A DNA stretch of 32,000 bases from an uncultured Actinomycetes bacterium. GTDB lineage: Bacteria; Actinomycetota; Actinomycetes; S36-B12; CAIYMF01. Where the stretch lies: contig CAWJMG010000003.1 of the NCBI GenBank assembly GCA_963843975.1, positions 1,350,001 to 1,382,000 of the forward strand. The letters run 5' to 3'. Below, piece after piece: positions 1-24,823 of the stretch. Below the pieces are notes generated by a model. It saw only the letters and a list, made by a program, of their open reading frames with translations. It did not search any database and had not been told where the DNA came from. Each line of letters begins with the position of its first letter. The first letter of the stretch is position 1. The translations under genes and the position numbers were made by a program.

Positions 1-930
1 GTTGGCGTGCGTGGCCACGACGCGCTCGGCCACCTGAAGCGCCGCCGACGTCATGATGTCGAGGTTGCCGGCGTACGCCGGGAGGTAGTGGCCGGCGCCC
101 TCGACCTCGAGGAACACCGACACCACCAGGCGGTCGGCGGGCTCGCGGTCGGGCACGAGCACGCGCTCCGCCGAGTCTTTGCCGACCTTGCGGAACTGCA
201 CCTTCTGCTTCAGGCGGTAGCCCGGCACGTACGACGCCACCCGCGCGACCATGCGTGCGACGGAGTCGATCACGGCCTGCTCGTCGCACTCGTCCACGAT
301 GGCGAGCACGGTGTCACGCATGATCAACGGCGGCTCGGCCGGGTTGAGGATGATGATCGCCTTGCCGCGGGCGGCACCGCCGACCCTCTCGATCGCGAGT
401 GATGTGGTCTCGGTGAACTCGTCGATGTTGGCGCGGGTGCCGGGTCCGGCCGACTTCGACGCGATCGACGCGACGATCTCCGCGTAGTGCACCGGCGTCA
501 CCTGCGAGATCGCGGCGACCATGGGGATGGTCGCCTGGCCGCCGCAGGTCACCATGTTCACGTTGCGGCTGGTGAGGTGCTCGTCGAGGTTGACGGCGGG
601 GACGACGTACGGGCCGATTGCGGCGGGCGTGAGGTCGACCATCGTGACGCCGGTGCCGGCGAGCGCCGCGTCGTTGTGGATGTGCGCGCCCGCAGACGTA
701 GCGTCGAACACGATGCCGATCTCGTCGAGGTGCGGCAGGTCGAGCAGGCCGTCGACGCCGGTCGAGACGGTGGGAACACCCATGCGGGCGGCGCGGGCGA
801 GGCCGTCGGATGCCGGGTCGATGCCGACCATCGCGCCCATCTCGAGGGTCTGCGACAGGCGCATCACCTTGATCATGAGATCGGTGCCGATGTTGCCCGA
901 CCCGATGATCGCGACCTTGTTGCGCGTCAC
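1..930 (-). CDS. acetaldehyde dehydrogenase (acetylating), MhpF/BphJ/DmpF/HsaG family; the C-terminal end runs off the window start
   Basis: My own minus-strand translation from GTG at 930-928 gives (M)[20 protein letters not shown]...[18 protein letters not shown]...[16 protein letters not shown]. These are the family's NAD-binding and catalytic-Cys motifs. GGAGGAG RBS at 936-942. GTGA overlap with the hydratase stop. It is absent from the ORF track because there is no stop inside the window. Confidence 0.9.
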
Positions 931-1730
931 GCCTTCTCCTCCATCGCGAACGTGACCGAGATCGTGCCGAGGCCGGAGATGTCCGCTTCGACGACGTCGC
1001 CCGGGCGGACGACAGACATGGGACCGAGCGCACCTGACAGCACGACCTCGCCCGCGCGCAGCGGGTCGCCGAGGTCGCGCACGGTGCGGGCCAGCCACAG
1101 CAGCGCGAGGAGCGGGTCGCCCAGGCAGGCAGCGCCCTGGCCTTCCGAGGCGATCGCGCCGTTCATGGTCATCGACATCACGACGTCGACCGGCTCGAAC
1201 TTGGTGAGCGGCACCACTAGGTCGGACACGACGTACAGGCCGCTCGAGGCGTTGTCGGCGACGGTGTCGACGTACGAGATGTCCCAGTCGGCGATGCGGC
1301 TGTCGACGATCTCGATCGCCGCGATCGCGCCAGTGACGGCCTCACGGACCTCCGCGACGTCCTCGAGCGGGCCGTCGAGGTCGGCGCCGAGGAGGAAGGC
1401 CACCTCCGCCTCGACCTTGGGCTGCAGCAGCAGCCCCGCGGGCACGGTGCCACCGGCGGGCACGACCATGTCGTCGAGCAGCGATCCGAAGTCGGGCGTG
1501 CCGACCCCCAGCTGCTTCTGCACGGCGGGCGATGTCAGCCCGATCTTCCGACCGACCCTCACCGCCCCGGAGTCGAGCCGGCGGGCGATGTTGAGCGAGG
1601 AGACGGCGTACGCCGACTCGACGTCGTCCGCCGCGATGAGGTCACGCACGGGCGGGCACGGCGTGCGCCATTCGGCGGCGGCCCAGAGCCGGTCGGCGGC
1701 GGCCTGCCGCGGGTCGGTGATGAGCGTCAT
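927..1730 (-). CDS. 2-keto-4-pentenoate (2-oxopent-4-enoate) hydratase, MhpD/BphH/XylJ/HsaE family
   Basis: 267-aa ORF. Family-typical segments are [23 protein letters not shown] and [12 protein letters not shown]. It is translationally coupled to the downstream acetaldehyde dehydrogenase, the classical hydratase to dehydrogenase (to aldolase) order. Confidence 0.9.
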
Positions 1731-1776: not shown

Positions 1777-2580
1777 ATGTCACGGAACACCAACGTCTCC
1801 CCTGCTGTTCGGACCTCGAGCGACACAGAACGCCCGGCCACCAGGGGCGAATCGCGCGACACCATGCTCGAGCGCGGCATCTTCATCCTGCAGTCGTTCC
1901 GTCCGACGGGACAGCCGCAGACGCTCACCGCCATCGCTCGCCGGACGGACCTGCCCAAGTCCACGACGCACCGCATCGTCGAGGTGCTCGCCGGCCAGGG
2001 CCTGCTGGAGCGGACGGATGAGGGATGGGTGCTCGGTCGCGCGCTGTTCGAGCTCGGCGAGCTCGTGCCCATCAAGCGGCGGCTGCGCGAGACCGCGCTG
2101 CCGTTCATGGAGGACCTGTACGAGGCCACGCACGAGACCGTGCACCTCGCGGTGCGCGACGACCTCGACGTGCTGTACGCCGAGAAGATCCGCGGTCACT
2201 CCGGCGTGGACATGCCGTCCCGCGTCGGGGGGCGACTGCCGCTGTCGAGCACGGGGGTGGGCAAGACGCTGCTCGCCTTCTCCCCCGCCTCCCTCGTCGA
2301 GGAGGTCATGTCACGGCCGCTGCGCAGGCTGACGGCTCTCTCCATCTCGGACCCGGTGGTCCTGCAGAACGAGCTCGCCACGATCCGCTCGGCCGGCGTC
2401 GGCTACGACCACGAGGAGGCGGCGCTCGGGGTCAGCTGCGTCGCCTCACCCGTCCTGGTGCGCGGCGAGCCCGTCGCCGCGCTGTCGGTGAGCGTCCCGT
2501 CCGACCAGCTGCAGCCGGCACGCCTTGCCCCCGCCGTCCGCACCGCAGCCCTGGCTCTCGGGCGGGCCCTGTCTCGTTGA
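1777..2580 (+). CDS. IclR-family transcriptional regulator
   Basis: Only the 3' part of track ORF 487..2580 looks real. It has an HTH (LTAIARRTDLPKSTTHRIVEVLAGQGLLER) and the IclR effector-domain pattern (GGRLPLSSTGVGKTLLAF...GYDHEEAALGVSCVASPV). The start is ambiguous: ATG 1777 is used here, and ATG 1864 is the alternative. It is divergent from the hydratase operon. Confidence 0.85.
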   Translation: MSRNTNVSPAVRTSSDTERPATRGESRDTMLERGIFILQSFRPTGQPQTLTAIARRTDLPKSTTHRIVEVLAGQGLLERTDEGWVLGRALFELGELVPIKRRLRETALPFMEDLYEATHETVHLAVRDDLDVLYAEKIRGHSGVDMPSRVGGRLPLSSTGVGKTLLAFSPASLVEEVMSRPLRRLTALSISDPVVLQNELATIRSAGVGYDHEEAALGVSCVASPVLVRGEPVAALSVSVPSDQLQPARLAPAVRTAALALGRALSR

Positions 2581-2586
2581 GGCCGA

Positions 2587-3786
2587 TCAGCCCCAGCCGT
2601 GCTGCAGCGGCGGCTCGTAGGGCCGCTGCCCCAGGGTGTGCGAGATCGCGTCAGCCGTGCGACGAAGCTCGTCGATCCAGGTGAGGACCTCCACCGCCTC
2701 AGCACGTGCCGGCAGGTGCACCAGGCGCAGGTACAGCACAGGCTCGCCCTTGTCGCCGGCCACGGGCACCACGATGGAGTGGACGTCGTAGCGGTGCCCG
2801 GGCAGCAGCTCCACCGGCTCGTAGCGGTCGGTGAACTCCGCGATGGTGGCCTTGACCGCACGCTCCCGGGCGGGAGTGGACTCGCCCTGCGCGTACTCGC
2901 GCAACGCGTCGTAGAAGCGGATCTCCTCGTCGGGAGCGAGTCGCGACATCGACCAGCCGCGGGCGCGGGCGACGGCGAGCCTCGAGAGATGCGCCTCACG
3001 TCCGGCGGCGTCCTGGATGCCACCGCGGTCGAGCCACTGCTCCTGCACGTCGGGCTCGCACCACGCGGCGATCTGCTCTCCGAGCGGCGCCATGAGCGGC
3101 ACCCGCATCCCGAGCATCGGCCCGGTGTGCGAGGGGCCCGAGCCTGCGGTCGCGACGAATGCGAGCTCGCTGCCCACGTGAGCGATGGCGTCGACCTCCA
3201 TGTCGACGCGGAGCGAGAGGTCCTCCAGGTGCGGGCGGGCGGCCTCGGCGGTGCGCACCGCGGAGATGAGGTCCGGTGCCGCCGTCGCGACGAGGGAGAG
3301 CGAGGTGAAGCGCCCGTAGCCGCCCTGGAAGAACAGCAGCGGCGCAACGGGGTTGACGACGTCCATCTCCTGGACGCGTCCGATGACGAGGTAGTGGTCG
3401 CCGGCCTCCTGGACCGACTCGACGCTGCACTCGATCCAGGCGACGGAGTCGTCGAGCACGGGAGCCCCCAGCGGCGACCGCGACCAGGCGATGCCGTCCC
3501 AGCTCGTCTCGCCACGGGACGCGAACCTGCGGCAGAGATCCTCCTGGTCGGCGGCCAGCACGTTCACGGCGAAGACGTTCGCCGACTGAAGCCGGGAGTA
3601 CCTCCCCGAGCCCTTCGTCGGCAGGAAGGCCACGAGCGGCGGATCGAGCGAGACGGAGGTGAACGAGCCGACGACCATGCCCACCGGCTCGCCGGCCTCG
3701 TCGAACCCGGTGATGAGCGCGACACCCGTCGGGTAGTGACCCAGGGTCTCGCGGAAGCGACGGCCGTCGAACGCTGTCGGCGTCAT
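2587..3786 (-). CDS. flavin reductase domain (HpaC/HsaB-like) fused to an IclR-effector-like (GAF-like) C-terminal domain, with no HTH
   Basis: The N-terminal ~165 aa, FRETLGHYPTGVALITG...GMVVGSFTSVSLDPPLVAF...FAVNVL...GDHYLVIGRV, is a flavin reductase split-barrel. The C-terminal ~230 aa follows IclR effector-domain motif order (ARPHLEDLS...GMRVPLMAPLG...ARARGWSMS...HSIVVPVAGDKGEPVLYLRLV). Start taken at ATG 3786 (MTPTAFDGRRFRE) with AAGGAG upstream. The track ORF extends to 3891. Confidence 0.75.
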   Translation of the reverse strand: MTPTAFDGRRFRETLGHYPTGVALITGFDEAGEPVGMVVGSFTSVSLDPPLVAFLPTKGSGRYSRLQSANVFAVNVLAADQEDLCRRFASRGETSWDGIAWSRSPLGAPVLDDSVAWIECSVESVQEAGDHYLVIGRVQEMDVVNPVAPLLFFQGGYGRFTSLSLVATAAPDLISAVRTAEAARPHLEDLSLRVDMEVDAIAHVGSELAFVATAGSGPSHTGPMLGMRVPLMAPLGEQIAAWCEPDVQEQWLDRGGIQDAAGREAHLSRLAVARARGWSMSRLAPDEEIRFYDALREYAQGESTPARERAVKATIAEFTDRYEPVELLPGHRYDVHSIVVPVAGDKGEPVLYLRLVHLPARAEAVEVLTWIDELRRTADAISHTLGQRPYEPPLQHGWG

Positions 3787-3850
3787 CGCGAACGTCACTC
3801 CTTCAGGTGCGGGGCCGGCCCGATCGGGCAGTACTCCGACGGTAGAGAGG

Positions 3851-5344
3851 TCACGCACGCCGGGCGAGAGACGCGTTCCGGGCCTCGGCACGAGCTGCCG
3901 TGGTGGTCCAGGTCGCGACTCCGGCGGCCACCAGGAGCGCGAGCAGAGATGCCCAGAAGATGCGGTAGCCCGTGAGCAACGAGTCGACGTCGGAGGTCGT
4001 CAGCTGAGCGGTATCGGCGGAGAAGAAGGCCTGCGCCCCTGTGGCGGAGAGGCCCAGCGTCACGACGGTCAGGCCCACTGCCAGCCCTACCGCGAAGGAC
4101 CCGTTCGTCCCCAGGGTCCTGACTGCGTTCGTGCGCCCGACCTTGTCAGGCGGCGCGAGGCCGATGAGCATGCTCGAGTTCACGGCTCCGAACAGGCCGC
4201 TCCCCGCTCCCACGATCGACACGCCGACGACCTGCAGAAGGGTCGTGCGCTCCGACCCGACCGAGGCGAGGAGCAGGACGACGCCGGCCGCGGTCACGAG
4301 GATTGTCGTCAGCGCGACCGACTCGGGCCTGCGGCCGCGAAGGGCCGGCCCGGCGAGAAGCGAGGAGACGGTCACCCCGACCGCGAGCGGCGCGACGACC
4401 GCTGCGGCCTGCAGGGGCGTGCCGCCCTCGACCCCCTGGACGTACAGCGCGACGAGGGCACCCGTCGCGAGCCGCGGCACGATCACGATGCACGAGGCGA
4501 GGAAGGCCACGCTGAACGCGCGGCTCCGGAACAGGTCCGGATCGATGGCCGGCTCGCGCGCGGTGCGCAGCCACCAGGGAAGCGGCGCGAGGCACAGCAC
4601 TGCCACCGCCAGCGCGGCCACGACGAGTGGCTCGGACCACCCGGAGTACGGCGCCCTCGAGACGCCGAGGAGGAGGCCGCTGAGCCCGACGAACAGCAGG
4701 AGCGACCCGACGACGTCGATGCGCACCCGGCTGCCGGCGGACGGCCGTGGCTGCCCCCGGAGGACACCCCGGGCCCAGAGCAGAGCCCCGACCCCGAGCG
4801 GGACGTTGAGCCAGAACAGCCAGCGCCAGTCGAGCACGGTGGTGACGACGCCGGCGATGACGGGACCGACGACGTGGCCGGTGGAGAAGCCGGCGAGGTA
4901 CACGCCCATCGCTCTACCCAGTCGCGGCCCCGGAAAGACCCCCGCGAGGATCACGGCCGCGTTGGTGAGCAGTACCGCTCCCCCGACCGCCTGGATCCCG
5001 CGACCGGCCACGATCACCCACGCGGACGGCGCGGCGGCCACCACCACTCCCCCGGCCGTCGTGAGAGCCACAGCCGCGAGGAAGAGCAACCGACGGTCGA
5101 CCACGTCGGCGACCTGGCCGAACGGGATCAGCAGCCCGGTGGAGACCAGCCCGAAGACGAGCAGGGTCCAGCTGCTCTGAGCCGCGGTGGCATCGAGGTC
5201 GGCTGCGACGCTCGGCAGCGCGACGTTCATCATCGTCGCGTTGAGCCCGACGGAGAACGTCGTGAGGAAGACGAGGCCGAGCAGCGACAGCTCATGCCGC
5301 CGTCGTACGGACGCGCTGGCGGCGCTGCCCTCCGGCGAGGGCAT
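3851..5344 (-). CDS. MFS transporter, DHA2 (EmrB/QacA-like, ~14 TMS) family
   Basis: Highly hydrophobic throughout, with an MFS motif-A-like segment (FGQVADVVDRRLLFLAAV). Start chosen at ATG 5344-5342 (MPSPEGS), which forms an ATGA overlap with the upstream FAH gene stop. Confidence 0.85.
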   Translation of the reverse strand: MPSPEGSAASASVRRRHELSLLGLVFLTTFSVGLNATMMNVALPSVAADLDATAAQSSWTLLVFGLVSTGLLIPFGQVADVVDRRLLFLAAVALTTAGGVVVAAAPSAWVIVAGRGIQAVGGAVLLTNAAVILAGVFPGPRLGRAMGVYLAGFSTGHVVGPVIAGVVTTVLDWRWLFWLNVPLGVGALLWARGVLRGQPRPSAGSRVRIDVVGSLLLFVGLSGLLLGVSRAPYSGWSEPLVVAALAVAVLCLAPLPWWLRTAREPAIDPDLFRSRAFSVAFLASCIVIVPRLATGALVALYVQGVEGGTPLQAAAVVAPLAVGVTVSSLLAGPALRGRRPESVALTTILVTAAGVVLLLASVGSERTTLLQVVGVSIVGAGSGLFGAVNSSMLIGLAPPDKVGRTNAVRTLGTNGSFAVGLAVGLTVVTLGLSATGAQAFFSADTAQLTTSDVDSLLTGYRIFWASLLALLVAAGVATWTTTAARAEARNASLARRA

Positions 5345-6195
5345 CAGGGGGCCGCGACGAACCGCTGCTGCAGCTCTCCGACGCCGTCGACCCATGTGCG
5401 CAGGGTGTCACCGGCGCGAAGGAAGGGCTTGTCCGGCCTGCCGAGAGCCACGCCGGAGGGGGTGCCCGTCCAGATGAGGTCGCCGGGCAGCAGGGTGACC
5501 GACGCCGATAGCTCGGCGACCAGCCGCGACACGGGGAAGATCAGCTCGCTCGTCCGCGACTCCTGCACCGTCACGCCGTTGACAGCGCAGCCGAGGCCGA
5601 GGTCGTCGCGGTCCGGCAGCGCGCCGGTGGTGACCAGCCATGGCCCGGTGGGCCCATACCCGGGCAGGGACTTGCCGAGCGACCACTGTCGCGCCGGGTC
5701 GTTCGTCTGCCGGTCGCGGTCCGAGATGTCGTTTCCCACCGTGACACCAGCCACGTGGTCCCAGGCCTCGGACTCGGCCACGCGGCTCGCCTCGCGACCG
5801 ATGACGACGACCAGCTCGGCCTCCCAGTCGATCGACGGCCCGGCCACGACCACTTCGGTCACAGGTCCGGTGAGGCACGAGGCGAACTTGGTGAACACGA
5901 CGGGCCGATCGGGGATCGCAGCACCCGTCTCGCGGGCGTGCTCGCGGTAGTTGAGCCCGATCGCGAAGACCTGCCGCGGCCGCGGTACCGGTGGGCCCAG
6001 CTCGGCGGGGTCGAACGCCTCGCCGTCGACGGCGGCCAGGTCGAGTTCCGCCCCCCACGCGAGGAGCGTGTCCCACCGCTCGAAGGCCGCCTGCGGGTCA
6101 GCTCCGAAGGCGCCGGCCGAGAGCCTCTCGACATCGGCCCCGAGACCGTCGTCGAGGACCAGGGTCAGCCGTCCGGCCAGGTTCGCGAGGCGCAC
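5344..6195 (-). CDS. fumarylacetoacetate hydrolase (FAH) family protein (COG0179-type hydratase/decarboxylase/acylpyruvase)
   Basis: Only the C-terminal 284 codons of track ORF 5344..6864 are protein-like (QVFAIGLNYREHA...IDWEAELVVVIG...GVTVGNDISDRD...GDLIWTGTPSGV). GTG start at 6195-6193, preceded by AAGGAG. Confidence 0.85.
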   Translation of the reverse strand: MRLANLAGRLTLVLDDGLGADVERLSAGAFGADPQAAFERWDTLLAWGAELDLAAVDGEAFDPAELGPPVPRPRQVFAIGLNYREHARETGAAIPDRPVVFTKFASCLTGPVTEVVVAGPSIDWEAELVVVIGREASRVAESEAWDHVAGVTVGNDISDRDRQTNDPARQWSLGKSLPGYGPTGPWLVTTGALPDRDDLGLGCAVNGVTVQESRTSELIFPVSRLVAELSASVTLLPGDLIWTGTPSGVALGRPDKPFLRAGDTLRTWVDGVGELQQRFVAAP

Positions 6196-6226: not shown

Positions 6227-7027
6227 TCAGGCCCAGGTGTCGCGGGCGATGCGGGCGGCCGCGCGTCGGACGTGGGTGCCGACCTGGGCCGGGTCGAAGC
6301 GCCCGGTCGGACCGGCCACCGACACCGCGGCCACAGCCACGCCGTCGCGCAGGATCGGCGCCGCCGCGCACATGAGCCCGAGCGCCGACTCCTCCCTCTC
6401 GAACGCGATGCCGTCCACGTGCACCTTGCGCAGCTGCTGGAGGAAGCGTCCGGGGTGGGCGATCGAGTAGCGCGTGCGCTGGGTGAGGCCGCCCTCGACC
6501 GTGCGCTGGATGGTGGCGGGCTCGCTGAACGCGAGGATCGCCTTGCCCAGCGAGGTGCAGTTGGCCGGCACCCGCCCACCGACGACGCTCGGCGTCCTCG
6601 GCGAGAGCGGGCCGCTGACCTTGTCGAGGTAGACGACGTCGGAGCCGTCGAGCACCGCGAGGTGCACGGCGAACTGGGTGCGGGCGAAGAGCTCCCCGAG
6701 GTACGGCGCTGCCACGTCGCGCAGTCCGCGAGGCTGGCAGTGCTGGACCCCGTTGCCGAGCTCGAAGAGCCGCCACCCCAGCCGGTAGTCGGTGCCGTCA
6801 CGCTCGACGAACCCGGCCTGCTCGAGGTGGCTGAGGAGTCGGAACGCCGTCGACTTGGCCACACCAGCCCGGCGCGCGATCTCGCTCACGCCGAGTGTGG
6901 GTCCGTGGCCACGGAACACGTCGAGCAGGGTCAGCGCCTTGAGGACGGAGCCCGCCTTCGCGTCCTCGTCCTGAGCGGTGTCCTGGTGCTCTGCGGGCAC
7001 CATCTCGAGAACTGTTGCCTGAGACAT
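6227..7027 (-). CDS. IclR-family transcriptional regulator
   Basis: ATG at 7027-7025 (MSQATVLE) with a GGAGGAGG RBS. HTH is LGVSEIARRAGVAKSTAFRLLSHLEQAGFVER. Effector domain is GGRVPANCTSLGKAILAF...GIAFEREESALGLMCAAAPI. Confidence 0.9.
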   Translation of the reverse strand: MSQATVLEMVPAEHQDTAQDEDAKAGSVLKALTLLDVFRGHGPTLGVSEIARRAGVAKSTAFRLLSHLEQAGFVERDGTDYRLGWRLFELGNGVQHCQPRGLRDVAAPYLGELFARTQFAVHLAVLDGSDVVYLDKVSGPLSPRTPSVVGGRVPANCTSLGKAILAFSEPATIQRTVEGGLTQRTRYSIAHPGRFLQQLRKVHVDGIAFEREESALGLMCAAAPILRDGVAVAAVSVAGPTGRFDPAQVGTHVRRAAARIARDTWA

Positions 7028-7142: not shown

Positions 7143-8321
7143 TCAGTGGAAGGAGGGCATGACGACCGGGCCGCCGAAGTACTGGACGCCCCACGTCGTG
7201 TACTGCTTCTCCGCCTCGTTGCAGATGTGGCTGCCGCCTGCGTGCAGATCGCGCCAGTACCGCTGGAGGTGGCCCGGGCGGTCGGTGTGGATGGCCGAGG
7301 CACCAGCCAGGTTGAAGAGCTTGTCGATCGCGGCGATGGCGCGACGCGACGCGCGCACCTGGTCACGCCGGCTGGCGAGCCGCTGCTCCAGCGTGAGCGG
7401 GATGCCGTTCACCATCTGGTCGTAGAACTCGTCGAACATGACCTTGAGGACGAGCTTGCTGGCCGCGAGGTCGGAGTACGCCTCGGCAAGGGCAGCGAGC
7501 TGGAACGGGTCGGTCTTGGCGACGCTCCCGTTGGCGCTCACCCGGTTGCGGACGTACTCGGTGTAAACGTCGAGGCAGCCCTGCGCGATGCCGAGCGTGC
7601 CGGACCCGATGGCTGCAGAGAACAGCACCGCGAAGTTCAGGTTGTAGAGCGGGTTCCCCGGCTGACGCTCCTCGGAGTAGCCGTTCTCCAGCATGCGGAC
7701 GCCCTCGACGACCCGGTAGTCGGGGATGAAGGCGTCGACGATCTTCACGTCCTTGGATCCGGTGCCGGTGAGGCCCATGACGTTCCACGAGCCCTCGATC
7801 ACCTCGTAGTCCGAGCGGGGCAGCACGAAGTGGCGGATGTCAGGAGGAGTGCCAACGGCGCCGTCCTCGTCGACCACGATCCCGCCGAGGATGATCCAGT
7901 CGCAGAAGTCCGTGCCCGTCGAGTACGGCCACTGGCCGGAGAAGCGGAAGCCGCCGTCGACCTTGGTGGCGCGGCCGAACGGCGCATAGGGAGAAGCGAC
8001 CAGCGTGTCGGGGTCGTCGCCGTAGATCTCGTCCTGCAGACGGGGGTCCATGAGCGCGATCTCCCACGGGTGGACGCCGACGACGCCGGCGATCCAGCCC
8101 GCTGACGGGCTGTACTGCGCCACGGCCTGCACCCAGTCGAAGAACGTCGTCGGACGCTCCTCGAAGCCGCCGTACTGCTTCGACTGGAGCAGGCGGAAGC
8201 CGCCGGACTCCTTGAGGATGCGGATCGTCTCGTCGGTGAGCCGACCCAGCTCGTCGCACTTGGGTGCCTCCTCGCGGAGGACGTCACCGGCCTTGTGGAT
8301 CGCCTCGACAGCCTCGTGCAT
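7143..8321 (-). CDS. flavin-dependent monooxygenase, oxygenase component (acyl-CoA dehydrogenase fold; HsaA / HpaH-C2-type group D)
   Basis: 392 aa, colinear with the remembered M. tuberculosis HsaA sequence (LRRLPDET.., ..VVGVHPWE.., SSYAPxG.., VMGLTGTGSKDV, RRDQVRA..SI..IDRLF..SGA.., QRYWRDLHAG). It requires a separate flavin reductase. Confidence 0.85.
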   Translation of the reverse strand: MHEAVEAIHKAGDVLREEAPKCDELGRLTDETIRILKESGGFRLLQSKQYGGFEERPTTFFDWVQAVAQYSPSAGWIAGVVGVHPWEIALMDPRLQDEIYGDDPDTLVASPYAPFGRATKVDGGFRFSGQWPYSTGTDFCDWIILGGIVVDEDGAVGTPPDIRHFVLPRSDYEVIEGSWNVMGLTGTGSKDVKIVDAFIPDYRVVEGVRMLENGYSEERQPGNPLYNLNFAVLFSAAIGSGTLGIAQGCLDVYTEYVRNRVSANGSVAKTDPFQLAALAEAYSDLAASKLVLKVMFDEFYDQMVNGIPLTLEQRLASRRDQVRASRRAIAAIDKLFNLAGASAIHTDRPGHLQRYWRDLHAGGSHICNEAEKQYTTWGVQYFGGPVVMPSFH

Positions 8322-8644: not shown

Positions 8645-9991
8645 GTGCCCCCGAAGACCGACCGCCGGCACCGGCAGGGTCACGAGTCACGGGTGCGGAT
8701 CCTCGAGGCGGCGCTCGAGATCGCAGCCGAGCGCGGGTACGACGGCACGACCGTCGCACTGGTCACCGAGCGCACGGGCCTGCCTGCGTCGTCGGTCTAC
8801 TGGCACTTCAAGAACAAGGACGCGCTCCTCGCCGAGACGCTCGAGCACAGCTACCGGATCTGGCGCGAGGGGACGCCGACCCGCGACCCCTCCGACGTCG
8901 GCGAACCTGCAGACCGTGTGCGGCACCGGTTCGCCCAGATGCGCGACGGGCTCTCGTCGGCGCCAGAGTTCTGGCGTCTCGGCCTCATGCTGGCGCTGCT
9001 GCGGGGTGACGAGCAGATCGCCGCGCGGGCCAGATTCCTCCAGGTACGTCAGGAGACGCTCGACGCCACCGTCGCCTGGTGGGACGACGTCCTGCCGGAC
9101 GGGACCTCCACGAGGCACCCCGACCTGTCGGCCGTGCTGACCCAGCTGCTCATGGCCTCGGGCGACGGCCTCTTCGTAGCTGCGCAGACCGAGCGGGCCT
9201 GGAACTTCGCGCGCCTCACGGACTCGCTCGGCCGGGCCTTTGCCGCGGTCGCGCCACGCCTCGCAGCCGCTCCCCGACGACGCCGCACGACCGCGTCGCG
9301 GGACACCGACGAGGGCCTGGGCCCCCGTGCCGCGCCCGAGGAGTCGCGCGCCCGGTTGCTCGCAGCGGCGGCCGAGGTAGCCACCGAGCGCGGCTACGTC
9401 GGGACGACGATCTCCCGCGTCTGCGAGCGGTCGGGGCTTCCGGTGAGCTCCCTCTACTGGTTCTTCGACGACAAGGACGCCCTTCTGGCCGCCGTCGTGC
9501 AGCACTCGTTCGACGAGTGGCTGGACCTCCAGCCCACCTGGACGCTGGCGACGACGGGCGACATGCGCGTCACGGTCCTCACCCGTGTCCTGCGCCGCAC
9601 GACCCGTAGCTTCGGCGACGCCCCCGACTTCCTGCGCATCGGGCACATGGTGGCGCTGGAGCGGCAGGACGAGGATCCGGCCGCTCGGGTGCTGTTCCTG
9701 CGGATCCGGCGCGACGTGGAGAAGTCGCTCACGGCATGGTTCGCCGGAACTCTCTCCGCCGGCCCGGCCGCCGGCGACCGCGAGCTCCCCCGCACGCTGG
9801 CCCGCCTCGTCATGGCCATCACGGACGGGCTCTTCCTCGCCGAGCAGATGGACTCCTGGGACTGGGACTTCGATGCGCTGGTCGACGCTCTCGTCGCCGT
9901 GCTCGAGGAGATCGTGGCGCAGCGGGAGGACGAGCTCACTGCGAAGGCGAAGGCCGCGGCCCGTGCCCGTCGCGCCGCTGCGCGGGCCTGA
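8645..9991 (+). CDS. TetR/AcrR-family regulator made of two complete tandem TetR repeats (single-chain pseudo-dimer)
   Basis: Two TetR_N HTHs are present: RILEAALEIAAERGYDGTTVALVTERTGLPASSVYWHFKNKDALL (aa ~17-60) and RLLAAAAEVATERGYVGTTISRVCERSGLPVSSLYWFFDDKDALL (aa ~245-290). Each is followed by a similar ligand-domain segment (FWRLGLMLALLRGDE / FLRIGHMVALERQDE). GTG start at 8645 after GAGGAGAGGACGAGGA. Confidence 0.85.
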   Translation: MPPKTDRRHRQGHESRVRILEAALEIAAERGYDGTTVALVTERTGLPASSVYWHFKNKDALLAETLEHSYRIWREGTPTRDPSDVGEPADRVRHRFAQMRDGLSSAPEFWRLGLMLALLRGDEQIAARARFLQVRQETLDATVAWWDDVLPDGTSTRHPDLSAVLTQLLMASGDGLFVAAQTERAWNFARLTDSLGRAFAAVAPRLAAAPRRRRTTASRDTDEGLGPRAAPEESRARLLAAAAEVATERGYVGTTISRVCERSGLPVSSLYWFFDDKDALLAAVVQHSFDEWLDLQPTWTLATTGDMRVTVLTRVLRRTTRSFGDAPDFLRIGHMVALERQDEDPAARVLFLRIRRDVEKSLTAWFAGTLSAGPAAGDRELPRTLARLVMAITDGLFLAEQMDSWDWDFDALVDALVAVLEEIVAQREDELTAKAKAAARARRAAARA

Positions 9992-10051
9992 CCGTCCCGG
10001 CGGACGGCACCTGTGTTGTCGTCCGCTGCCACGTCGTACCACGATGCGGGG

Positions 10052-10468
10052 ATGAGCCTGCTCACCTTGGACATCACCCGCACCCTGCTGGACGCCGTCG
10101 TCACGGAGGCGGCTGGGCGTGGTGAGCGCATCAGCGTCGTGATCGTCGACGCGCACGGCGACGTGGTCGGCTCTCTGCGCATGGACGGCGCCCCGGGGTT
10201 CACCCCGTCGGTGGCCAGGGCGAAGGCGCGGACCTCGGTTCTGATGCGTGCGGACAGCGGAGCCCTCGCCGGCCTCAAGGCGGACTACCCCGAGCTGATC
10301 GACCAGATCACCGAGCACGCCGGGTTCCGCGTCACGACGCTGCCCGGGGCCGTGGTGCTGCAGGGTGGCGACTCGACGCTCGGTGCCGTGGCGGTGAGCG
10401 GGGCACACCCCGACGTCGACGTCGCATGCGCGGAGACCGCACGCTCGCTCTGGCTGACCCTCCCCTGA
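10052..10468 (+). CDS. GlcG/HbpS-like (DUF336) putative heme-binding protein
   Basis: MSLLTLDITRTLLDAVV...VVIVDAHGDVVGSLRMDGAP...ARAKARTS...GAVAVSGAHPDVDVACA matches the DUF336 pattern. Start at ATG 10052; the track ORF begins at 10013. Confidence 0.75.
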   Translation: MSLLTLDITRTLLDAVVTEAAGRGERISVVIVDAHGDVVGSLRMDGAPGFTPSVARAKARTSVLMRADSGALAGLKADYPELIDQITEHAGFRVTTLPGAVVLQGGDSTLGAVAVSGAHPDVDVACAETARSLWLTLP

Positions 10469-10527: not shown

Positions 10528-11421
10528 CTAGGCGTCGATGACGTCGGGGGCGTTCTGGACGCGCACGTGGCCCCAGAAGCTCGGGACGTCGTATCGGCCC
10601 GGGAGCCACTGGTCGTCGTCGATGGTGAGGCCACCGGTGCCGTACTCGATCTGGAAGCCCGACGGGGTGCGCACGTAGAACGAGATCATCTGGTCGTTCG
10701 AGTGGCGCCCGAGCGACATCGCGAGAGGGGCGAATCCGTCCTCGACGACCTTGGAGTAGGCGCGGCCCACGGCGTCGATGTCGTCGACCTCGAACATGAT
10801 GTGGCCGATGCCCGGGGGCACTCCGGGCACGGCCGCGAACGCCATCGAGTGGTGCCGCTCGTTGCAGTGCGTGAAGGTTGCGGCCAGCGGCCCGAAGTCG
10901 ATGTAGTCGCTGAACTTGAAGCCCAGGATGTCGAAGTAGAGCCTGTTGTACGCCGCCTCGTCGCTGACCATCTGGAACACGTGGCCCGCGCCGCCCGCAC
11001 CGGTGACGAAGCGCGCGGCTGTCGGCGACACGAACACGGCCCGCGGCTCGCGGAAGCCGTAGAAGAGCTCGACCGAGATGCCGTCGGGGTCGTCGAAGGT
11101 CACGAGTCCGCTGACGTACCGCTCACGGTAGGCGACCTGCGGATCCTCGCGCTTGATGGCGTAGCCCTCGGCCTCGAGTCGCTGTGCGACCTCCTCGAGC
11201 TCGGCAGCACCCGCAACCTCCCAGCCGAGCACGGTGACTCCGTCGCGGTCGGCCTTGCGGATGTCGAGGCGGTACTCCTTGTGGTCGCACCGCAACCGCA
11301 GCATGTCGTCGGTGCGCTCAGCCACGGCGAACCCGAGCAGCTCGGTGGCGAAGGTCTCCCACGCGTCAAGGTCGGTCGCCGAGACGACGGCGTACCCGAA
11401 CCCCCTGATCCGTGCGGTCAT
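10528..11421 (-). CDS. type I extradiol ring-cleavage dioxygenase (BphC/HsaC, 2,3-dihydroxybiphenyl 1,2-dioxygenase-like; VOC superfamily)
   Basis: 297 aa. Two-domain VOC pattern with metal ligand regions GAGHVFQM, HCNERHHSMAF, HIMFEV and GRHSNDQMISFYVRTPSGFQIEYG. Confidence 0.9.
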   Translation of the reverse strand: MTARIRGFGYAVVSATDLDAWETFATELLGFAVAERTDDMLRLRCDHKEYRLDIRKADRDGVTVLGWEVAGAAELEEVAQRLEAEGYAIKREDPQVAYRERYVSGLVTFDDPDGISVELFYGFREPRAVFVSPTAARFVTGAGGAGHVFQMVSDEAAYNRLYFDILGFKFSDYIDFGPLAATFTHCNERHHSMAFAAVPGVPPGIGHIMFEVDDIDAVGRAYSKVVEDGFAPLAMSLGRHSNDQMISFYVRTPSGFQIEYGTGGLTIDDDQWLPGRYDVPSFWGHVRVQNAPDVIDA

Positions 11422-11466: not shown

Positions 11467-12306
11467 TCAGCGGTTGCTGACGAAATCGGTGACGAGGCGG
11501 TTGAACTCGGCCGAGTGCTCCACCTGGGCCCAGTGGCCGCAGCGGTTGAGCAGCATGAGGCGCGAGTCGGGGATCATCGCCGTGAGCGCGAGGCTGTTCT
11601 CGTAGTGCACGACGCGGTCGTCCCTGCCGTGGAACAGCAGCGCAGGCGTGCGGATCGAGAGGACGTCATCCACGGTCGGCCAGAAGGGAAAGGCCTTGCC
11701 GATACCGGCGACGAAGTTCTCGAGGTGGTCTGGCCGGGCGAGCGCGGCGTCCGAGCGCTGCTGCGCAAGCGCATCAGTGGCGTTGGCGGGGTCGAACGTC
11801 ATGATCTCGACGAGTCGCTTCATGCTGGCCGGCGACGGGTCGCGATAGGCCTCCTGCAGCACCTTGAGGCCCTCGGTCGGGCCGTCGCCGGCACCGAAGA
11901 GCCGCGGCCCCGGAGCGCCAGGGCCCATCGTGACGAGGTGCGAGATGCGGTCGGGGTGCAGGGCCGCGAACCGCAGTGCGGTCATGCCGCCCATTGAGTT
12001 GCCGACGAACGCGGCCTTCTCGATCCCGAGGGTGTCGAGGAGGTCGAGCGCGGCGCCGGCATGGTCGCGCTCGTCGAACGTGACCGCGTCCGACAGACCC
12101 CATCCCGGCATGTCGACGGCGATCACACGGAACCGCTCGGCCAGCGCAGGCATGTTGGGGCCGAAGTTGCTCCAGCCGGTGGCACCAGGGCCGCTTCCGT
12201 GCAGCATGACCACCGGGTGGCCCTCGCCCGCCTCGTTGCAGTGGATCTTCCAGCGGGGGGTCTCGACCGTCCGGCTCGTCGACTCGAACGTGAGGTCGCG
12301 CGCCAC
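11467..12306 (-). CDS. meta-cleavage product (C-C bond) hydrolase, BphD/HsaD/MhpC alpha/beta-hydrolase family, copy 1
   Basis: HGSGPGA, nucleophile GNSMGG, HGRDDRVV and CGHWAQVEH. Start moved to GTG 12306-12304 (VARDLTFE) because GGAGGAG lies 5 nt upstream and the N-terminus then aligns with the paralog. The track ORF starts at 12348. Confidence 0.88.
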   Translation of the reverse strand: MARDLTFESTSRTVETPRWKIHCNEAGEGHPVVMLHGSGPGATGWSNFGPNMPALAERFRVIAVDMPGWGLSDAVTFDERDHAGAALDLLDTLGIEKAAFVGNSMGGMTALRFAALHPDRISHLVTMGPGAPGPRLFGAGDGPTEGLKVLQEAYRDPSPASMKRLVEIMTFDPANATDALAQQRSDAALARPDHLENFVAGIGKAFPFWPTVDDVLSIRTPALLFHGRDDRVVHYENSLALTAMIPDSRLMLLNRCGHWAQVEHSAEFNRLVTDFVSNR

Positions 12307-12410
12307 GACGGCTCCTCCCGGTTGCGCGAGGCTGATCCACGCGGTCACGGGAGCGTCGCACGCACGTGCCGGGCTGCCCCAGCGTCACGTGCCGGTCGGC
12401 GGAACGGCGC

Positions 12411-13610
12411 TCAGGCGGCACCTGCGGGGCGCGGGACGACCAGCAGGAGCATGAGCAGGGCACCCAGCGCGGCGATCAGCATCGTGGCGGGCATCGCCCA
12501 CGCGCCGGGCACGAGCGCGGACACGATCGGCGGGACAAGGGCACCCGCGAGGAACTGCGATGTGCCGAGCAGCCCGGACGCCGTGCCCGCCACGCGCCCG
12601 TGCGGCGTCATCGCAAGCGACTGGGAGTTCGCCGCCATGCCGCCGTACCCGCCGAGCGCTACGACGGCCGTGCCGACGACCCAGGGCAGCGGGACGTCGC
12701 GCACTATCGCGACGAGCAGGAGAAGAGACGCCGCGGCGATGACCGCCAGCCCACGCAGCAACGCACGACGGGGCCCGATCCGGCCGACCGACCACGCGTT
12801 GGCCTGGGCCCCGAGGACGAAGGCGGTCGCCGTGCAGGCGAACACGGCCGAGTACTGCTGCGGCGTGACGCCGTACTGCCCGGTGAGCACGAACGAGCTC
12901 GAGGAGATCCAGCTGAACAGGATGATGCCGAGGAACGAGCCGACACCGAGGTAGCCGAGGAAGGCGCGGTCGCGCAGCAGCCGGCGCACCTCTGCCCACT
13001 GCTCCCGTGGGTGCCCGTCCAGGCGCGCGTGCTCGGGGTGCGTCTCGGGGAGCAGGAAGAACGCCGCAGCGAGGATGACGAGCCCCAGCCCGGCGAGGAC
13101 CACGAACAGGCCTCGCCAGTCGGTCACGCGCAGCAGCTGGCCGCCGAGCACCGGCCCCAGCACCGGGGCGAGCCCCATCACGAGGATGAGCCGAGACAGC
13201 ACCCGTGCAGCCGCGGCGCCCTCGACCAGGTCGCGCACGCAGGCCCGGGCGATGACTGTGCCCGCCGATCCTGCCAGGCCCTGGACGAAGCGCAGAGCGA
13301 GCAGCACCTCGATACTCGGGGCGACGGCGCAGAGGAGGCTGGCCGCCACGAATACGGCGAAGCCGACCAGCAGCGGGGCGCGACGCCCCGTCCGGTCGCT
13401 GATCGGGCCCATCACCAGCTGGCCCAGGGCCAGCCCGACGATCGTCGCCGAGATGGTGAGCTGCGCCTGAGCGCTCGAGCTGCCCAGCGACGCCGCGAGG
13501 TCAGGCAGGCCCGGGAGGTACAGGTCCGTCGCCAGGGGCGCCAGCATGATCAGAGACCCGAGGACGAAGTACATCTGGAGCGGGAACGACCCAACGGTCC
13601 CCTCGCGCAT
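12411..13610 (-). CDS. MFS transporter, Bcr/CflA (DHA1, 12 TMS) family
   Basis: LAPLATDLYLPGLP, GPISDRTGRR and RFVQGLAGSAG motifs. Start is either ATG 13610 (GAGGA 5 nt upstream, used here) or GTG 13628 (track). Confidence 0.85.
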   Translation of the reverse strand: MREGTVGSFPLQMYFVLGSLIMLAPLATDLYLPGLPDLAASLGSSSAQAQLTISATIVGLALGQLVMGPISDRTGRRAPLLVGFAVFVAASLLCAVAPSIEVLLALRFVQGLAGSAGTVIARACVRDLVEGAAAARVLSRLILVMGLAPVLGPVLGGQLLRVTDWRGLFVVLAGLGLVILAAAFFLLPETHPEHARLDGHPREQWAEVRRLLRDRAFLGYLGVGSFLGIILFSWISSSSFVLTGQYGVTPQQYSAVFACTATAFVLGAQANAWSVGRIGPRRALLRGLAVIAAASLLLLVAIVRDVPLPWVVGTAVVALGGYGGMAANSQSLAMTPHGRVAGTASGLLGTSQFLAGALVPPIVSALVPGAWAMPATMLIAALGALLMLLLVVPRPAGAA

Positions 13611-13658
13611 CCCGGTCCTCGTCGTCACCCGGTCATGAATACCCGCTCGTCAGGCGGC

Positions 13659-13762: not shown

Positions 13763-14614
13763 ATGCCCCTTGAGCTCACCGACGAGGCGACCAGCCGGTA
13801 CGTCCGCACGCCGAGCTGGAACATCCACTACAACGAGGCCGGCGAGGGCCACCCGGTGATCCTGCTGCACGGCAGCGGTGCCGGTGCCTCGGGCTGGAGC
13901 AACTTCCGGCCCAACATCGCACCGCTCGCGGAGAGCTTCCGCGTGATCGCGATGGACGCCCCGGGCTGGGGTCGGTCGGACGCGGCGCTGCCCGAGGTCT
14001 ACGACCACCCCAACGCCGTCCTCGAGCTCATGGACGCCCTCGGCATCGAGAGGGCCGCGCTCATCGGCAACTCGATGGGCGGCATGACCGCGGTGACCTT
14101 CGCCGCCCGCTACCCCGACCGGATCTCGCACCTCATCACGATGGGTCCGGGCGCCTTCATCACGACGCCGACCCTCTTCGGCGCCGGCGACGGCCCCAGC
14201 GAGGGGCTCAAGGTGCTGTTCGAGGGCTACCGGGACCCGACGCAGGCCACGATGAAGAAGCTCGTCGAGATCATGACCTTCGACTCTGCGAACGCCACCG
14301 ACGAGCTCGCTGCCCAACGTGCCGAGAACGCCCAGGCGCGTCCCGAGCACCTCACCAACTTCCTGCAGGGGATGGCGGGTGGAGGCCCTGTCCGCACCGC
14401 GGCCACGGTGGAGCAGGCGGCTGGCATCCGTACGCCGACCCTTCTGCTGCACGGCCGCGACGACCGCGTCGTGCACTTCGAGCACTCGCTGCGACTCGTC
14501 TCGGTGATCCCCGACTCACGGTTGGTGCTGCTCAACCGTTGCGGTCACTGGGCGCAGCTCGAGCATGCGGACGAGTTCAACAGGATCGTGACGGACTTCG
14601 TCCAGAACGCCTGA
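13763..14614 (+). CDS. meta-cleavage product hydrolase, BphD/HsaD/MhpC family, copy 2 (paralog of 11467-12306)
   Basis: 283 aa with HGSGAGA, GNSMGG, HGRDDRVV and CGHWAQLEH. By eye it is roughly two-thirds identical to copy 1 along the full length. Confidence 0.9.
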   Translation: MPLELTDEATSRYVRTPSWNIHYNEAGEGHPVILLHGSGAGASGWSNFRPNIAPLAESFRVIAMDAPGWGRSDAALPEVYDHPNAVLELMDALGIERAALIGNSMGGMTAVTFAARYPDRISHLITMGPGAFITTPTLFGAGDGPSEGLKVLFEGYRDPTQATMKKLVEIMTFDSANATDELAAQRAENAQARPEHLTNFLQGMAGGGPVRTAATVEQAAGIRTPTLLLHGRDDRVVHFEHSLRLVSVIPDSRLVLLNRCGHWAQLEHADEFNRIVTDFVQNA

Positions 14615-14677: not shown

Positions 14678-15766
14678 TCAGACCGTCCGCGAGCGGTTGC
14701 GGACGATCTTCGCCAGGGCGACGGCCACGACGAGGCCGGCACCGTAGAAGACGTTCTGGATCCAGCCCGCGAAGCCGAGCAGCTGGAGCCCGAAGATGCC
14801 GGTCCACAGGAAGTAGATGGCGATCAGCGTGCCGATGGGATTGAACATGCCGGGCTGCACGACGGCGGTGCCGAGGAAGACCGCCGCGAGCGCCGGGAGC
14901 AGGAACTGTCCCGACGACGTCGGGTCGAAGCCGCCCAGGGTCGACACGAGCACGAGGCCCGCGAGACCGGCGACGAGCGAGGACCACATGTACGCACCGA
15001 AGCGGATCCGGTTCACCCGTACGCCTGCCAGACGCGCGACCTCGCGATTCGCGCCGACGAAGAGGATGTGGCGGCCCAGCGGCGTGTAGGCCATGAGGTA
15101 CGCGATGCCGACGGCGAGTGCCACGCCGTAGAAGAAGGACACCGGCATGCCGAGGACGGGGAACGACGCCAGGTTGCTGAAGATGTCGTCCTGGATGGAC
15201 ACGACGTTGGACGACGACAGCGCCTGTGAGAGGCCGATGAGCAGCGTGCCCGTGCCGAGCGTGACGACGAGGGACGAGACGTCGAGCACCACGACGAAGT
15301 AGGCGTTGACGGCGCCCACCACGAGGCAGGCGGCGAGCGCGATCAGGCATGCCACCCAGATGTTGACCCCGTGCAGTCCGGCGAGGACCGGCACGATCGT
15401 CGCGGCCAGACCCATGATCGAGGCGACCGACAGGTCGAACTCCCCCACCATCAGGGTGATCAAGGCCGACATCGCGAGGAACACCAGCACAGGCTGGCCG
15501 CCGAAGATGGCGCGCACAGCCCCCCAGGAGCCGAACGAGTCGGGCATCAGGAGGTAGTAGACGAGCGCCAGCGCCGCCCACACCAGCACCAGCGCGTACT
15601 TGCTGGTGACGACATGCAGCCACTGCGGCTCGTAGCGGCTGCGCAGCGTCACGCGGCTCGGCAGCTCCGCCGCCTCGGCCGGCTGGCCGCTGTCGCTGAC
15701 GAGGCGCTGCGTCGCGTCGTCGTCCGCGCTCAGACGCTCGGCTGCGGTCTCGGTCTCGTGCGTCAC
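14678..15766 (-). CDS. ABC transporter permease, RbsC/XylH-like (CUT2 sugar-type, BPD_transp_2)
   Basis: The C-terminal 362 codons of the 872-aa track ORF are multi-TMS with family-typical GEFDLSVASIMGLA and PLGRHILFVGANREVARLAGVRV. GTG start at 15766-15764, with CAGGAGG 6 nt upstream. GTGA overlap with the ATPase stop. Confidence 0.85.
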   Translation of the reverse strand: MTHETETAAERLSADDDATQRLVSDSGQPAEAAELPSRVTLRSRYEPQWLHVVTSKYALVLVWAALALVYYLLMPDSFGSWGAVRAIFGGQPVLVFLAMSALITLMVGEFDLSVASIMGLAATIVPVLAGLHGVNIWVACLIALAACLVVGAVNAYFVVVLDVSSLVVTLGTGTLLIGLSQALSSSNVVSIQDDIFSNLASFPVLGMPVSFFYGVALAVGIAYLMAYTPLGRHILFVGANREVARLAGVRVNRIRFGAYMWSSLVAGLAGLVLVSTLGGFDPTSSGQFLLPALAAVFLGTAVVQPGMFNPIGTLIAIYFLWTGIFGLQLLGFAGWIQNVFYGAGLVVAVALAKIVRNRSRTV

Positions 15767-18537: not shown

Positions 18538-18854
18538 GTCGGATCCTTCAGGTCGAGCCGCAGGTGCGGCGATGCAGGAGGAACTCCGGCGGCGGGAGCC
18601 TGGTGCGCCGGGAGGGCGTGCGGTCCGAACCCGACCCGGTGGTCCGGGCAACGTTCGGCGTGCGCATCAGGATGGGGACGGCGCCCACGTGGCGGAATGA
18701 CGCCGTGCCGCTCGCTGGAACGACCGCTCCAGATGGTTCGGGGCGCCCGCGTGACGTCACCCGACCGTGACCTCGGTCCCCCGGTCGTGCCGTGACCGTT
18801 CCGGCCAGCGGTCCGACGCGCTGGACCGGCTCCCCCGGGCTTCCTAGCCTCGTC

Positions 18855-18879: not shown

Positions 18880-18898
18880 AGTGCTCCCGAGGAGAACC

Positions 18899-22591: not shown

Positions 22592-22594
22592 GCG

Positions 22595-24822: not shown

Positions 24823-24823
24823 C

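Follow-up and report, generated by a model that had tools for sequence, protein, structure and literature searches.

Why should an enzyme that reduces flavin carry the effector-binding domain of a transcription factor? The question is raised by a gene in a 32,000-nucleotide stretch of DNA from an uncultured Actinomycetes bacterium (GenBank assembly GCA_963843975.1, contig CAWJMG010000003.1, positions 1,350,001 to 1,382,000 of the forward strand; the whole stretch is referred to here as the window), which joins an NADH:flavin reductase domain of the HsaB/HpaC type to a divergent IclR-type effector domain in one polypeptide. Two-component flavin monooxygenases risk losing NADH and forming H2O2 whenever their reductase works while no oxygenase is ready. 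The fusion is genuine and old, and purifying selection acts on both its halves; that it is an allosteric, metabolite-gated HsaB-type reductase with an IclR-derived sensor is a reading which, arguing by analogy, we regard as about evenly balanced between right and wrong. The parts of the gene and of its product are as follows.

2587..3786, minus strand: the whole flavin reductase–IclR_C fusion gene, a continuous open reading frame (ORF) of 399 amino acids (aa), stop codon at 2587-2589
3798..3804, minus strand: ribosome-binding site GAAGGAG of the fusion gene, 11 nucleotides 5' of the ATG, read from the sequence
3307..3786, minus strand: HsaB/HpaC-type NADH:flavin reductase domain, residues 1-160 (Pfam, NCBIfam, Foldseek)
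3277..3306, minus strand: flexible interdomain linker, residues 161-170, following the motif FFQGGYGRF (predicted local distance difference test score, pLDDT, of the AlphaFold model below 50 over residues 155-167)
2635..3276, minus strand: divergent IclR-type effector-binding domain, residues 171-384 (profile search of the PDB, Pfam at family level, Foldseek)
2791..2940, minus strand: helical insert of two helices, residues ~283-332, placed between strands four and five of the IclR_C fold (alignment, model)

The reading frame opens with the ATG at 3786 and continues for 399 uninterrupted codons until the stop at 2587-2589, and the family alignment places the start Met of the protein at the same Met as in its homologues. 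The window has 71% G+C and the third codon positions of the fusion gene have a G+C fraction of 0.90, the bias of a real gene. A missed frameshift or stop codon that might split the frame into two genes, a concern of the first-pass annotation, was looked for in the gene and not found, and in 79 of 82 related loci the reductase and IclR_C halves lie side by side.

The first-pass annotation had described the N-terminal ~165 aa as an HpaC/HsaB-type flavin reductase, and every comparison agrees. Pfam Flavin_Reduct (PF01613) matches residues 16-159 with an E value of 1.8e-42 and 145.5 bits, against a cutoff of 27. Among NCBIfam models HsaB is the best match to this half (181.6 bits), followed by FerA, Acinetobacter baumannii C1, StyB and HpaC, and the cutoff of 230 bits for the HsaB equivalog (NF045630) is not reached. 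An AlphaFold model of the full-length protein (mean pLDDT 83.7) retrieved solved flavin reductases as its top Foldseek matches (3nfw, 4xj2, 5zc2 and 8ct0, with E values down to 1e-18), and the match is to the split beta-barrel fold of these enzymes, with template modelling (TM) scores of 0.75-0.85 on the target. Nine residues of the reductase half are invariant in 52 family members (G40, S41, S44, S46, P49, P50, G129, D130 and H131), as is the junction motif FFQGGYGRF throughout the fusion family. Judged by profile and fold, then, the N-terminal half is an NADH:flavin reductase of the HsaB/HpaC type and, by the NCBI criterion, not an HsaB orthologue.

The second match of the full-length model was PDB 3rh7 (SMa0793 of Sinorhizobium meliloti, 292 aa), a solved but unpublished two-domain flavin reductase. 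It was not among the top 50 Foldseek matches of a model of the C-terminal domain, and no sign of a reductase–IclR_C architecture was seen in it; it may be another reductase that bears an added regulatory domain.

For the C-terminal half the single protein is a poor witness and the family a good one. In the window protein the Pfam IclR_C match falls short of the cutoff of 24 bits, scoring 21.0 when the whole protein is searched and 23.5 when the C-terminal half is searched by itself, and it spans just the first two-thirds of the profile. The same profile matched all 17 of the C-terminal halves scanned from the fusion family, and PF01614 is a precomputed assignment on many of the homologues. When a profile of these 17 halves was compared with the PDB, the top six matches were IclR regulators (5tjj, E value 5.4e-10, then 2ia2, KdgR, PcaR, 2g7u and TM-IclR), aligned in two colinear blocks separated by a gap. 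Modelled alone, the domain reached a pLDDT of 85 and a predicted TM score (pTM) of 0.83, and each of the top 50 Foldseek matches in the PDB was an IclR-family entry (probability 1.00, TM score up to 0.74 on domain-only targets). Searches with Pfam found neither a helix-turn-helix (HTH) profile match in the fusion protein, at E values up to 10, nor a MarR-type domain. The assignment of residues ~171-384 to a divergent IclR effector domain lacking an HTH is therefore secure at the family level; both the IclR likeness and the missing winged helix had been proposed from the sequence at the outset, together with the profile search and structure prediction that now uphold them at the level of family and fold.

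An insertion of ~45 aa had likewise been noticed. It measures ~47 aa, and alignment shows it to be missing from both of the canonical IclR regulators encoded nearby and present in HTH-bearing sister regulators. In the AlphaFold models its helices span residues 285-299 and 305-316, and R296, Y298, P305, R309 and Y322 are conserved within the insert. Over the C-terminal domain as a whole, 8 positions are invariant and about 30 nearly invariant across 52 sequences.

The search for other proteins that join Flavin_Reduct to IclR_C, which had been suggested as a check, returned over 100 homologues that match along the full length (385-425 aa, ~95% coverage), and a scan of one genome per species gave at least 597 related loci. 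The scan used the full-length family alignment, and its matches were then tested for both halves by tblastn. Almost all of the best 80 of these loci lie in Actinomycetota, where they include Arthrobacter, Glutamicibacter, Terrabacter, Janibacter, Nocardioides, Streptomyces, Amycolatopsis, Actinomadura, Rhodococcus, Gordonia, Dactylosporangium, Microbacterium, Leifsonia and Frankiaceae. Against orthologues of 96% and 87% identity, the ratio of non-synonymous to synonymous substitution rates (dN/dS) was 0.06-0.09 for the reductase, 0.05-0.14 for the IclR_C half and 0.05-0.10 for the insert. Both halves of this old fusion are thus held by purifying selection. They have diverged at different rates: across the family, identity to the window protein is 57-60% for the reductase half and 33-35% for the sensor half, and such faster change in the sensor half is expected if specificity varies between pathways.

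Two fusion genes lie on contigs of unexpected taxa, one in a metagenome-assembled genome labelled Pseudomonadota (L073) and one in a metagenome-assembled genome labelled Bifidobacterium breve (L009), and could reflect mis-binning or horizontal transfer. Paralogous fusion genes occur in pairs in a Nocardioides locus (L005; 9001-10206 and 17000-18211) and in a Streptomyces locus (L007; 4143-5384 and 9001-10215), the latter also with two HsaA-like oxygenase genes, an arrangement that would be consistent with joint diversification of sensor and enzyme as pairs.

Where the sensor domain came from can be approached through its closest relatives. Searching the full database with an alignment of the C-terminal halves gave 1,740 cluster representatives at an E value of 1e-3 or below, and 1,033 at 1e-10 or below. 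The best 150 of these representatives (50%-identity clusters) fell into the following architecture classes.

Full reductase plus IclR_C: 98 of 150
N-truncated fusion fragments: 13 of 150
HTH_IclR plus IclR_C regulators: 8 of 150, seven of ~290-310 aa and one double-IclR protein of 613 aa
Clearly truncated domain fragments: 14 of 150
Domain only, as fragments or stand-alone: 17 of 150

Reductase fusions, fragments included, make up 111 of the 150 best representatives with this insert-bearing domain subtype. The HTH of the ~300-aa insert-bearing regulators was verified with Pfam. These uncharacterised regulators (P0226, P0233, P0237, P0242, P0243 and P0260) carry the same IclR_C subtype at 25-33% identity, with an N-terminal HTH_IclR where the fusion has its reductase, and they have in common with the fusion the insert itself, the motifs GxRxPL and RxRG[WY]S, and W251. 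The insert-bearing ~300-aa IclR lineage is the likely donor of the fused domain, and the simplest history is one in which the reductase replaced the HTH within that lineage. A recent duplication of a neighbouring IclR gene was considered as the source and rejected, since comparison of these neighbours with the fused domain by hhalign gave probabilities of 1.4% and 41% and neither of them has the insert.

Some relatives of the domain deserve separate mention. The sister HTH regulators sit beside thioesterase, acyl-CoA synthetase, Baeyer-Villiger monooxygenase and luciferase-like genes; in L088 (353-1165) and L090 (7443-7958) they adjoin genes for 4HBT-type thioesterases, and L090 additionally has genes for an acyl-CoA synthetase and for Baeyer-Villiger and luciferase-like monooxygenases. 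These neighbours of the sister regulators are a weak hint that the insert-bearing subtype might sense an acyl-CoA or a carboxylate. The other hints of a ligand for the fused domain, equally weak, are its many conserved Arg, Tyr and Trp residues and the CoA-related neighbours of the distant fusion clades. The 613-aa protein (P0141) consists of two tandem HTH_IclR/IclR_C units, the second of them with the insert-bearing subtype, and resembles the tandem IclR regulator PobR of Streptomyces coelicolor (PDB 5w1e, 500 residues), which is among the fold matches of the domain model.

Which oxygenase might the reductase serve? A string of five co-directional genes ends with the fusion gene, which is preceded by those for an HsaA-like oxygenase, an IclR regulator, a fumarylacetoacetate (FAA) hydrolase-family enzyme and a major facilitator superfamily (MFS) transporter, and a second IclR gene converges on it from the other side.

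7143..8321, minus strand: HsaA-like group D flavin-dependent oxygenase (Pfam Acyl-CoA_dh_2; NCBIfam HsaA 374.9 bits, cutoff 450)
6227..7027, minus strand: IclR regulator no. 2, complete (Pfam HTH_IclR and IclR_C)
5344..6195, minus strand: FAA-hydrolase-family enzyme, 283 aa (Pfam FAA_hydrolase, E value 3e-64; NCBIfam matches all below cutoff)
3851..5395, minus strand: MFS transporter, directly upstream of the fusion gene (Pfam MFS_1; stop at 3851)
1777..2580, plus strand: IclR regulator no. 1, complete (Pfam HTH_IclR and IclR_C), convergent with the fusion gene, 6 bp between the stops

The first-pass annotation had named the oxygenase at 7143-8321 as the partner of the reductase, and synteny bears this out. 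No other Flavin_Reduct gene occurs within the window. Among 82 related loci, 37 also have an HsaA-like gene, and in 36 of these 37 the fusion is the only flavin reductase within 10 kb; of the closest 28 loci, 20 have an HsaA-like gene no more than 10 kb away. In one Arthrobacter locus (L006) the fusion takes the position of HsaB in a set that includes a Rieske/KshA_C protein, a KshB-like reductase and HsaD-, HsaA-, HsaC- and HsaE/G/F-like genes. That the fusion would stand in for HsaB in a two-component hydroxylase system of the HsaA type is, on this syntenic evidence, well supported. Universal pairing with HsaA-like oxygenases was also considered and rejected, because the association seen in 20 of 28 loci of the closer clade fails in the distant clades, where the fusion has short-chain dehydrogenase/reductase, enoyl-CoA hydratase, acyl-CoA synthetase, CoA-transferase and FAD-monooxygenase neighbours. 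The HsaA-like gene is often missing from the distant clades, so the pairing is clade-specific.

Several characterised systems resemble parts of this arrangement. The closest in design is C1 (AbHpaC) of the p-hydroxyphenylacetate 3-hydroxylase of A. baumannii (PDB 5zc2 and 5zyr), in which an HpaC-type reductase is followed by a linker and a C-terminal domain of transcription-factor type, and whose partner is a group D oxygenase, of the acyl-CoA-dehydrogenase fold, related to that of the window. The partner, C2, belongs to the same oxygenase subclade as HsaA (PMC12442392), and the C2 type is the second-best NCBIfam family of the window oxygenase (201 bits, far below the equivalog cutoff of 650). 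In C1 the C-terminal MarR-type domain autoinhibits the enzyme and 4-hydroxyphenylacetate (4-HPA) relieves the inhibition, stimulating flavin reduction at least 30-fold (PMC10816480, PMC6165268). C1 differs in that its extra domain is a MarR-type winged helix of ~150 aa, whereas the fusion has an alpha/beta IclR effector domain of ~215 aa, and in that C1 has been studied biochemically while the fusion protein is known here from sequence and models. The NCBIfam profile of C1 (NF045919) matches over positions 3-158 of 309, that is in the reductase half only, with 123.6 bits against a cutoff of 340. Since this match is confined to the reductase half and no MarR-type domain was found, the C1 and IclR_C fusions arose as independent events, and homology of the C-terminal half to the MarR-type domain of C1 is rejected on the same grounds. 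The fusion may, by analogy, work like C1 through an unrelated sensor fold, which would be a convergent recruitment of a transcription-factor sensor.

Of the NCBIfam families, the N-terminal half best matches HsaB, the reductase of the steroid-ring hydroxylase HsaAB (Rhodococcus jostii RHA1, Mycobacterium tuberculosis), and the partner genes in the window resemble HsaA, HsaC, HsaD and HsaE/G. The HsaB profile, with 186 positions, has the length of a single reductase domain. The HsaA-, HsaC- and HsaD-like enzymes of the window score below the cutoffs for HsaA, HsaC and HsaD orthologues (374.9 against 450, 242 against 450 and 240.8 against 400 bits, respectively), and with the fusion and its partner enzymes all below their equivalog cutoffs the substrate is probably not the steroid intermediate 3-HSA. 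IppA2 of Rhodococcus sp. D-6 belongs to the same reductase family and has the same kind of oxygenase partner, from the HsaA subclade, and differs in being a plain 162-aa protein that is active without an extra domain; HsaB and MpdB are grouped with it as reductase partners of this subclade (PMC12442392). The C-terminal half shares its fold and a GxRxP signature with the effector domains of IclR regulators such as PcaR, PobR, TM-IclR, KdgR and AllR, and differs from these proteins in having the ~47-aa insert, absent from canonical members, and no HTH_IclR, so that the fusion cannot bind DNA as they do. From its sequence it is a member of the Flavin_Reduct family that is neither an HsaB equivalog, nor an IclR regulator, nor a C1-type reductase.

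No paper that describes or tests a Flavin_Reduct–IclR_C protein was found in a full-text literature search, which covered few subscription journals; the nearest pathway study, that of the ipp cluster (PMC12442392), reports a plain reductase of 162 aa. The initial remark that the architecture appeared undescribed stands to that extent; in sequence databases, on the other hand, the architecture is common and is labelled automatically, as PF01613 plus PF01614 in Pfam or by JGI names such as 'RutF/DNA-binding IclR family'. The architecture is real, widespread and uncharacterised, and the concept of an effector-gated reductase already exists.

A function can now be proposed that would bring these observations together. 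In the role of HsaB, the fusion would be the NADH:flavin reductase component of an HsaA-like phenol hydroxylase, a two-component enzyme of group D whose catechol product enters a meta-cleavage pathway of the BphC/HsaC type. Its reductase is joined covalently, by a flexible linker of ~10 residues, to an IclR-type effector domain, and would have taken the place of the winged-helix DNA-binding domain of the insert-bearing IclR lineage. The sensor domain would bind a metabolite of the pathway, whether substrate, product or a downstream intermediate, and binding would turn flavin reduction on or off, with free reduced flavin then produced only while the oxygenase is able to use it. Such gating would limit futile oxidation of NADH and formation of H2O2. 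The gating is suggested because the domain is an effector-binding module in its HTH-bearing relatives, the sensor half diverges faster than the reductase, and C1 provides a precedent; ligand binding by the sensor domain, the identity of the ligand and the effect on catalysis are all inferred by analogy, and the gating idea is plausible. Extended to the whole family, it would make these proteins a second class of metabolite-gated flavin reductases, of independent origin and much wider distribution, in which a captured IclR sensor serves as a post-translational switch in many actinobacterial catabolic pathways and its specificity diverges by pathway. This extension is tentative, and we rate it somewhat below an even chance.

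Several points weigh against a gated reductase. Ligand binding and allostery are postulated by analogy. The precedent itself, C1, has an unrelated fold, so the analogy is functional and not one of homology. The more distant fusion clades often have no HsaA-like neighbour. The packing of the two domains is not predicted with confidence, the linker having a pLDDT below 50 and the whole protein a pTM of 0.63, against 0.83 for the domain alone. Weaker constraint, too, would account for the quicker divergence of the C-terminal half. IclR_C domains, moreover, mediate dimer and tetramer formation as well, which makes a purely structural role possible.

That structural role is the alternative that survives best, though it is rather unlikely. 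The IclR_C half would then act independently of any ligand as an oligomerisation or docking module, either building a higher-order complex of the normally dimeric reductase or tethering it to the HsaA-like oxygenase for a low-loss handover of flavin. Its fold is that of IclR effector domains, with their dimer and tetramer contacts in regulators, the conserved helical insert is rich in Arg and Tyr and could be a protein–protein surface, and the sequence data point to no particular ligand. The donor lineage argues the other way, as it consists of HTH-bearing regulators that use the domain as an effector-binding module and have its conserved motifs in common with the fusion. Tethering is also not what related systems would lead one to expect, for IppA2, the reductase of an oxygenase of the same subclade, works as a plain protein (PMC12442392), and the reduced FMN of C1/C2 is reported to diffuse without protein–protein contact (PMC10816480).

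Much less probable is a role as a trigger enzyme or decoy, in which the IclR domain, having no HTH, would enter into mixed oligomers with the full-length IclR regulators nearby, or vie with them for the inducer, and so make transcription of the cluster follow the amount or redox state of the reductase. It was already noted from the sequence that two bona fide IclR regulators lie within 4 kb, and both prove to be complete and to flank the fusion gene; an IclR gene is also a neighbour of the fusion in 19 of 72 related loci, among them most of the closest ones. These neighbours, however, lack the insert and bear only a weak resemblance to the fused domain (hhalign probability 1.4% for IclR no. 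1 and 41% for IclR no. 2), which makes homotypic mixed oligomers unlikely, the majority of the distant fusion loci have no IclR neighbour, and IclR regulators are common in aromatic catabolic clusters anyway.

Could the sensor domain simply be a decaying, functionless remnant of a gene-fusion accident? The sub-threshold Pfam score of the window protein and the lower conservation of the C-terminal half across the family might be taken that way. Yet the dN/dS of the C-terminal half and its insert (0.05-0.14) is in the same range as that of the reductase, the domain keeps its invariant and nearly invariant positions across the 52 sequences, its model is confident (pLDDT 85), and the fusion persists across many actinobacterial orders; selection and conservation exclude this strongly disfavoured reading, to which we give hardly any weight. 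An assembly or annotation artefact, with two genes merged by a sequencing error, has next to no probability and is already refuted by the same selection and conservation data, since continuous ORFs with the conserved junction motif FFQGGYGRF...SLVA occur in independent genomes and metagenomes of many genera, ORFs of ~398 aa are called at 72 loci, and no evidence favouring an artefact was found.

If the gene studied here does encode a metabolite-gated reductase, substrate-gated flavin supply would be a recurrent design in hundreds of Actinobacteria and no one-off. The MarR-type domain of C1 is the only well-studied safeguard at the level of the reductase, and a 2024 review called it uncommon (PMC10816480). 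The fusion would also show clearly how a sensor domain taken from a transcription factor can be put to use in regulating an enzyme, and might become a source of ligand-switchable reductases for biocatalysis and of new sensor domains for biosensors.

The rest of the gene cluster around the fusion bears on the pathway it may serve.

10528..11421, minus strand: BphC/HsaC-like extradiol dioxygenase (Pfam Glyoxalase and BphC_D1; NCBIfam BphC 275 bits and HsaC 242 bits, both below cutoff, that of the HsaC equivalog being 450)
11467..12348, minus strand: BphD/HsaD-like meta-cleavage-product hydrolase
13763..14614, plus strand: BphD/HsaD-like hydrolase paralogue, 67% identical to the copy at 11467-12348
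927..1730, minus strand: 2-keto-4-pentenoate hydratase-like enzyme
1 to ~935, minus strand: DmpF-like acetaldehyde dehydrogenase, after the hydratase-like gene
8645..9991, plus strand: 448-aa regulator with two TetR_N domains, divergent from the HsaA-like gene
10013..10468, plus strand: HbpS/GlcG-like protein, partner of the two-TetR_N regulator

All of the cluster enzymes score below the NCBIfam equivalog cutoffs, so the substrate cannot be assigned from family matches; from the set of genes it is probably a substituted or bicyclic phenol and not 3-HSA. In a close relative (L001) the cluster continues with a DmpG-like (HsaF/DmpG-like) aldolase. The MFS transporter upstream of the fusion probably has its true start near 5341, and its orthologue in L001 is 496 aa long. 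A further MFS transporter gene (12411-13628) lies between the two BphD/HsaD-like hydrolase genes. The pair formed by the two-TetR_N regulator and the HbpS-like protein recurs beside the cluster in L001, L004 and L008; L005 has the HbpS-like gene only and L006 the TetR gene only.

Beyond the cluster the window holds transport genes and a second gene group (18881-26188), for which no evidence of a link to the fusion was found and which comprises three paralogous FAD_binding_2 flavoproteins and others.

14678-17296, minus strand: 872-codon ORF with an ATP-binding cassette (ABC) ATPase (residues 19-174) and a branched-chain-type permease (residues 603-858)
17332-18651: periplasmic-binding-protein gene, after the 872-codon ORF
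18881-19828: phosphoenolpyruvate (PEP) mutase/isocitrate-lyase-family protein
19741-21234, 22595-24028 and 24653-26188: FAD_binding_2 flavoproteins (TcuA-, flavocytochrome c- or KstD-like)
21857-22591: isochorismatase-family protein
24025-24822: Asp/Glu racemase-family protein

The 872-codon ORF could encode a fused transporter, or could represent two genes read through in one frame.

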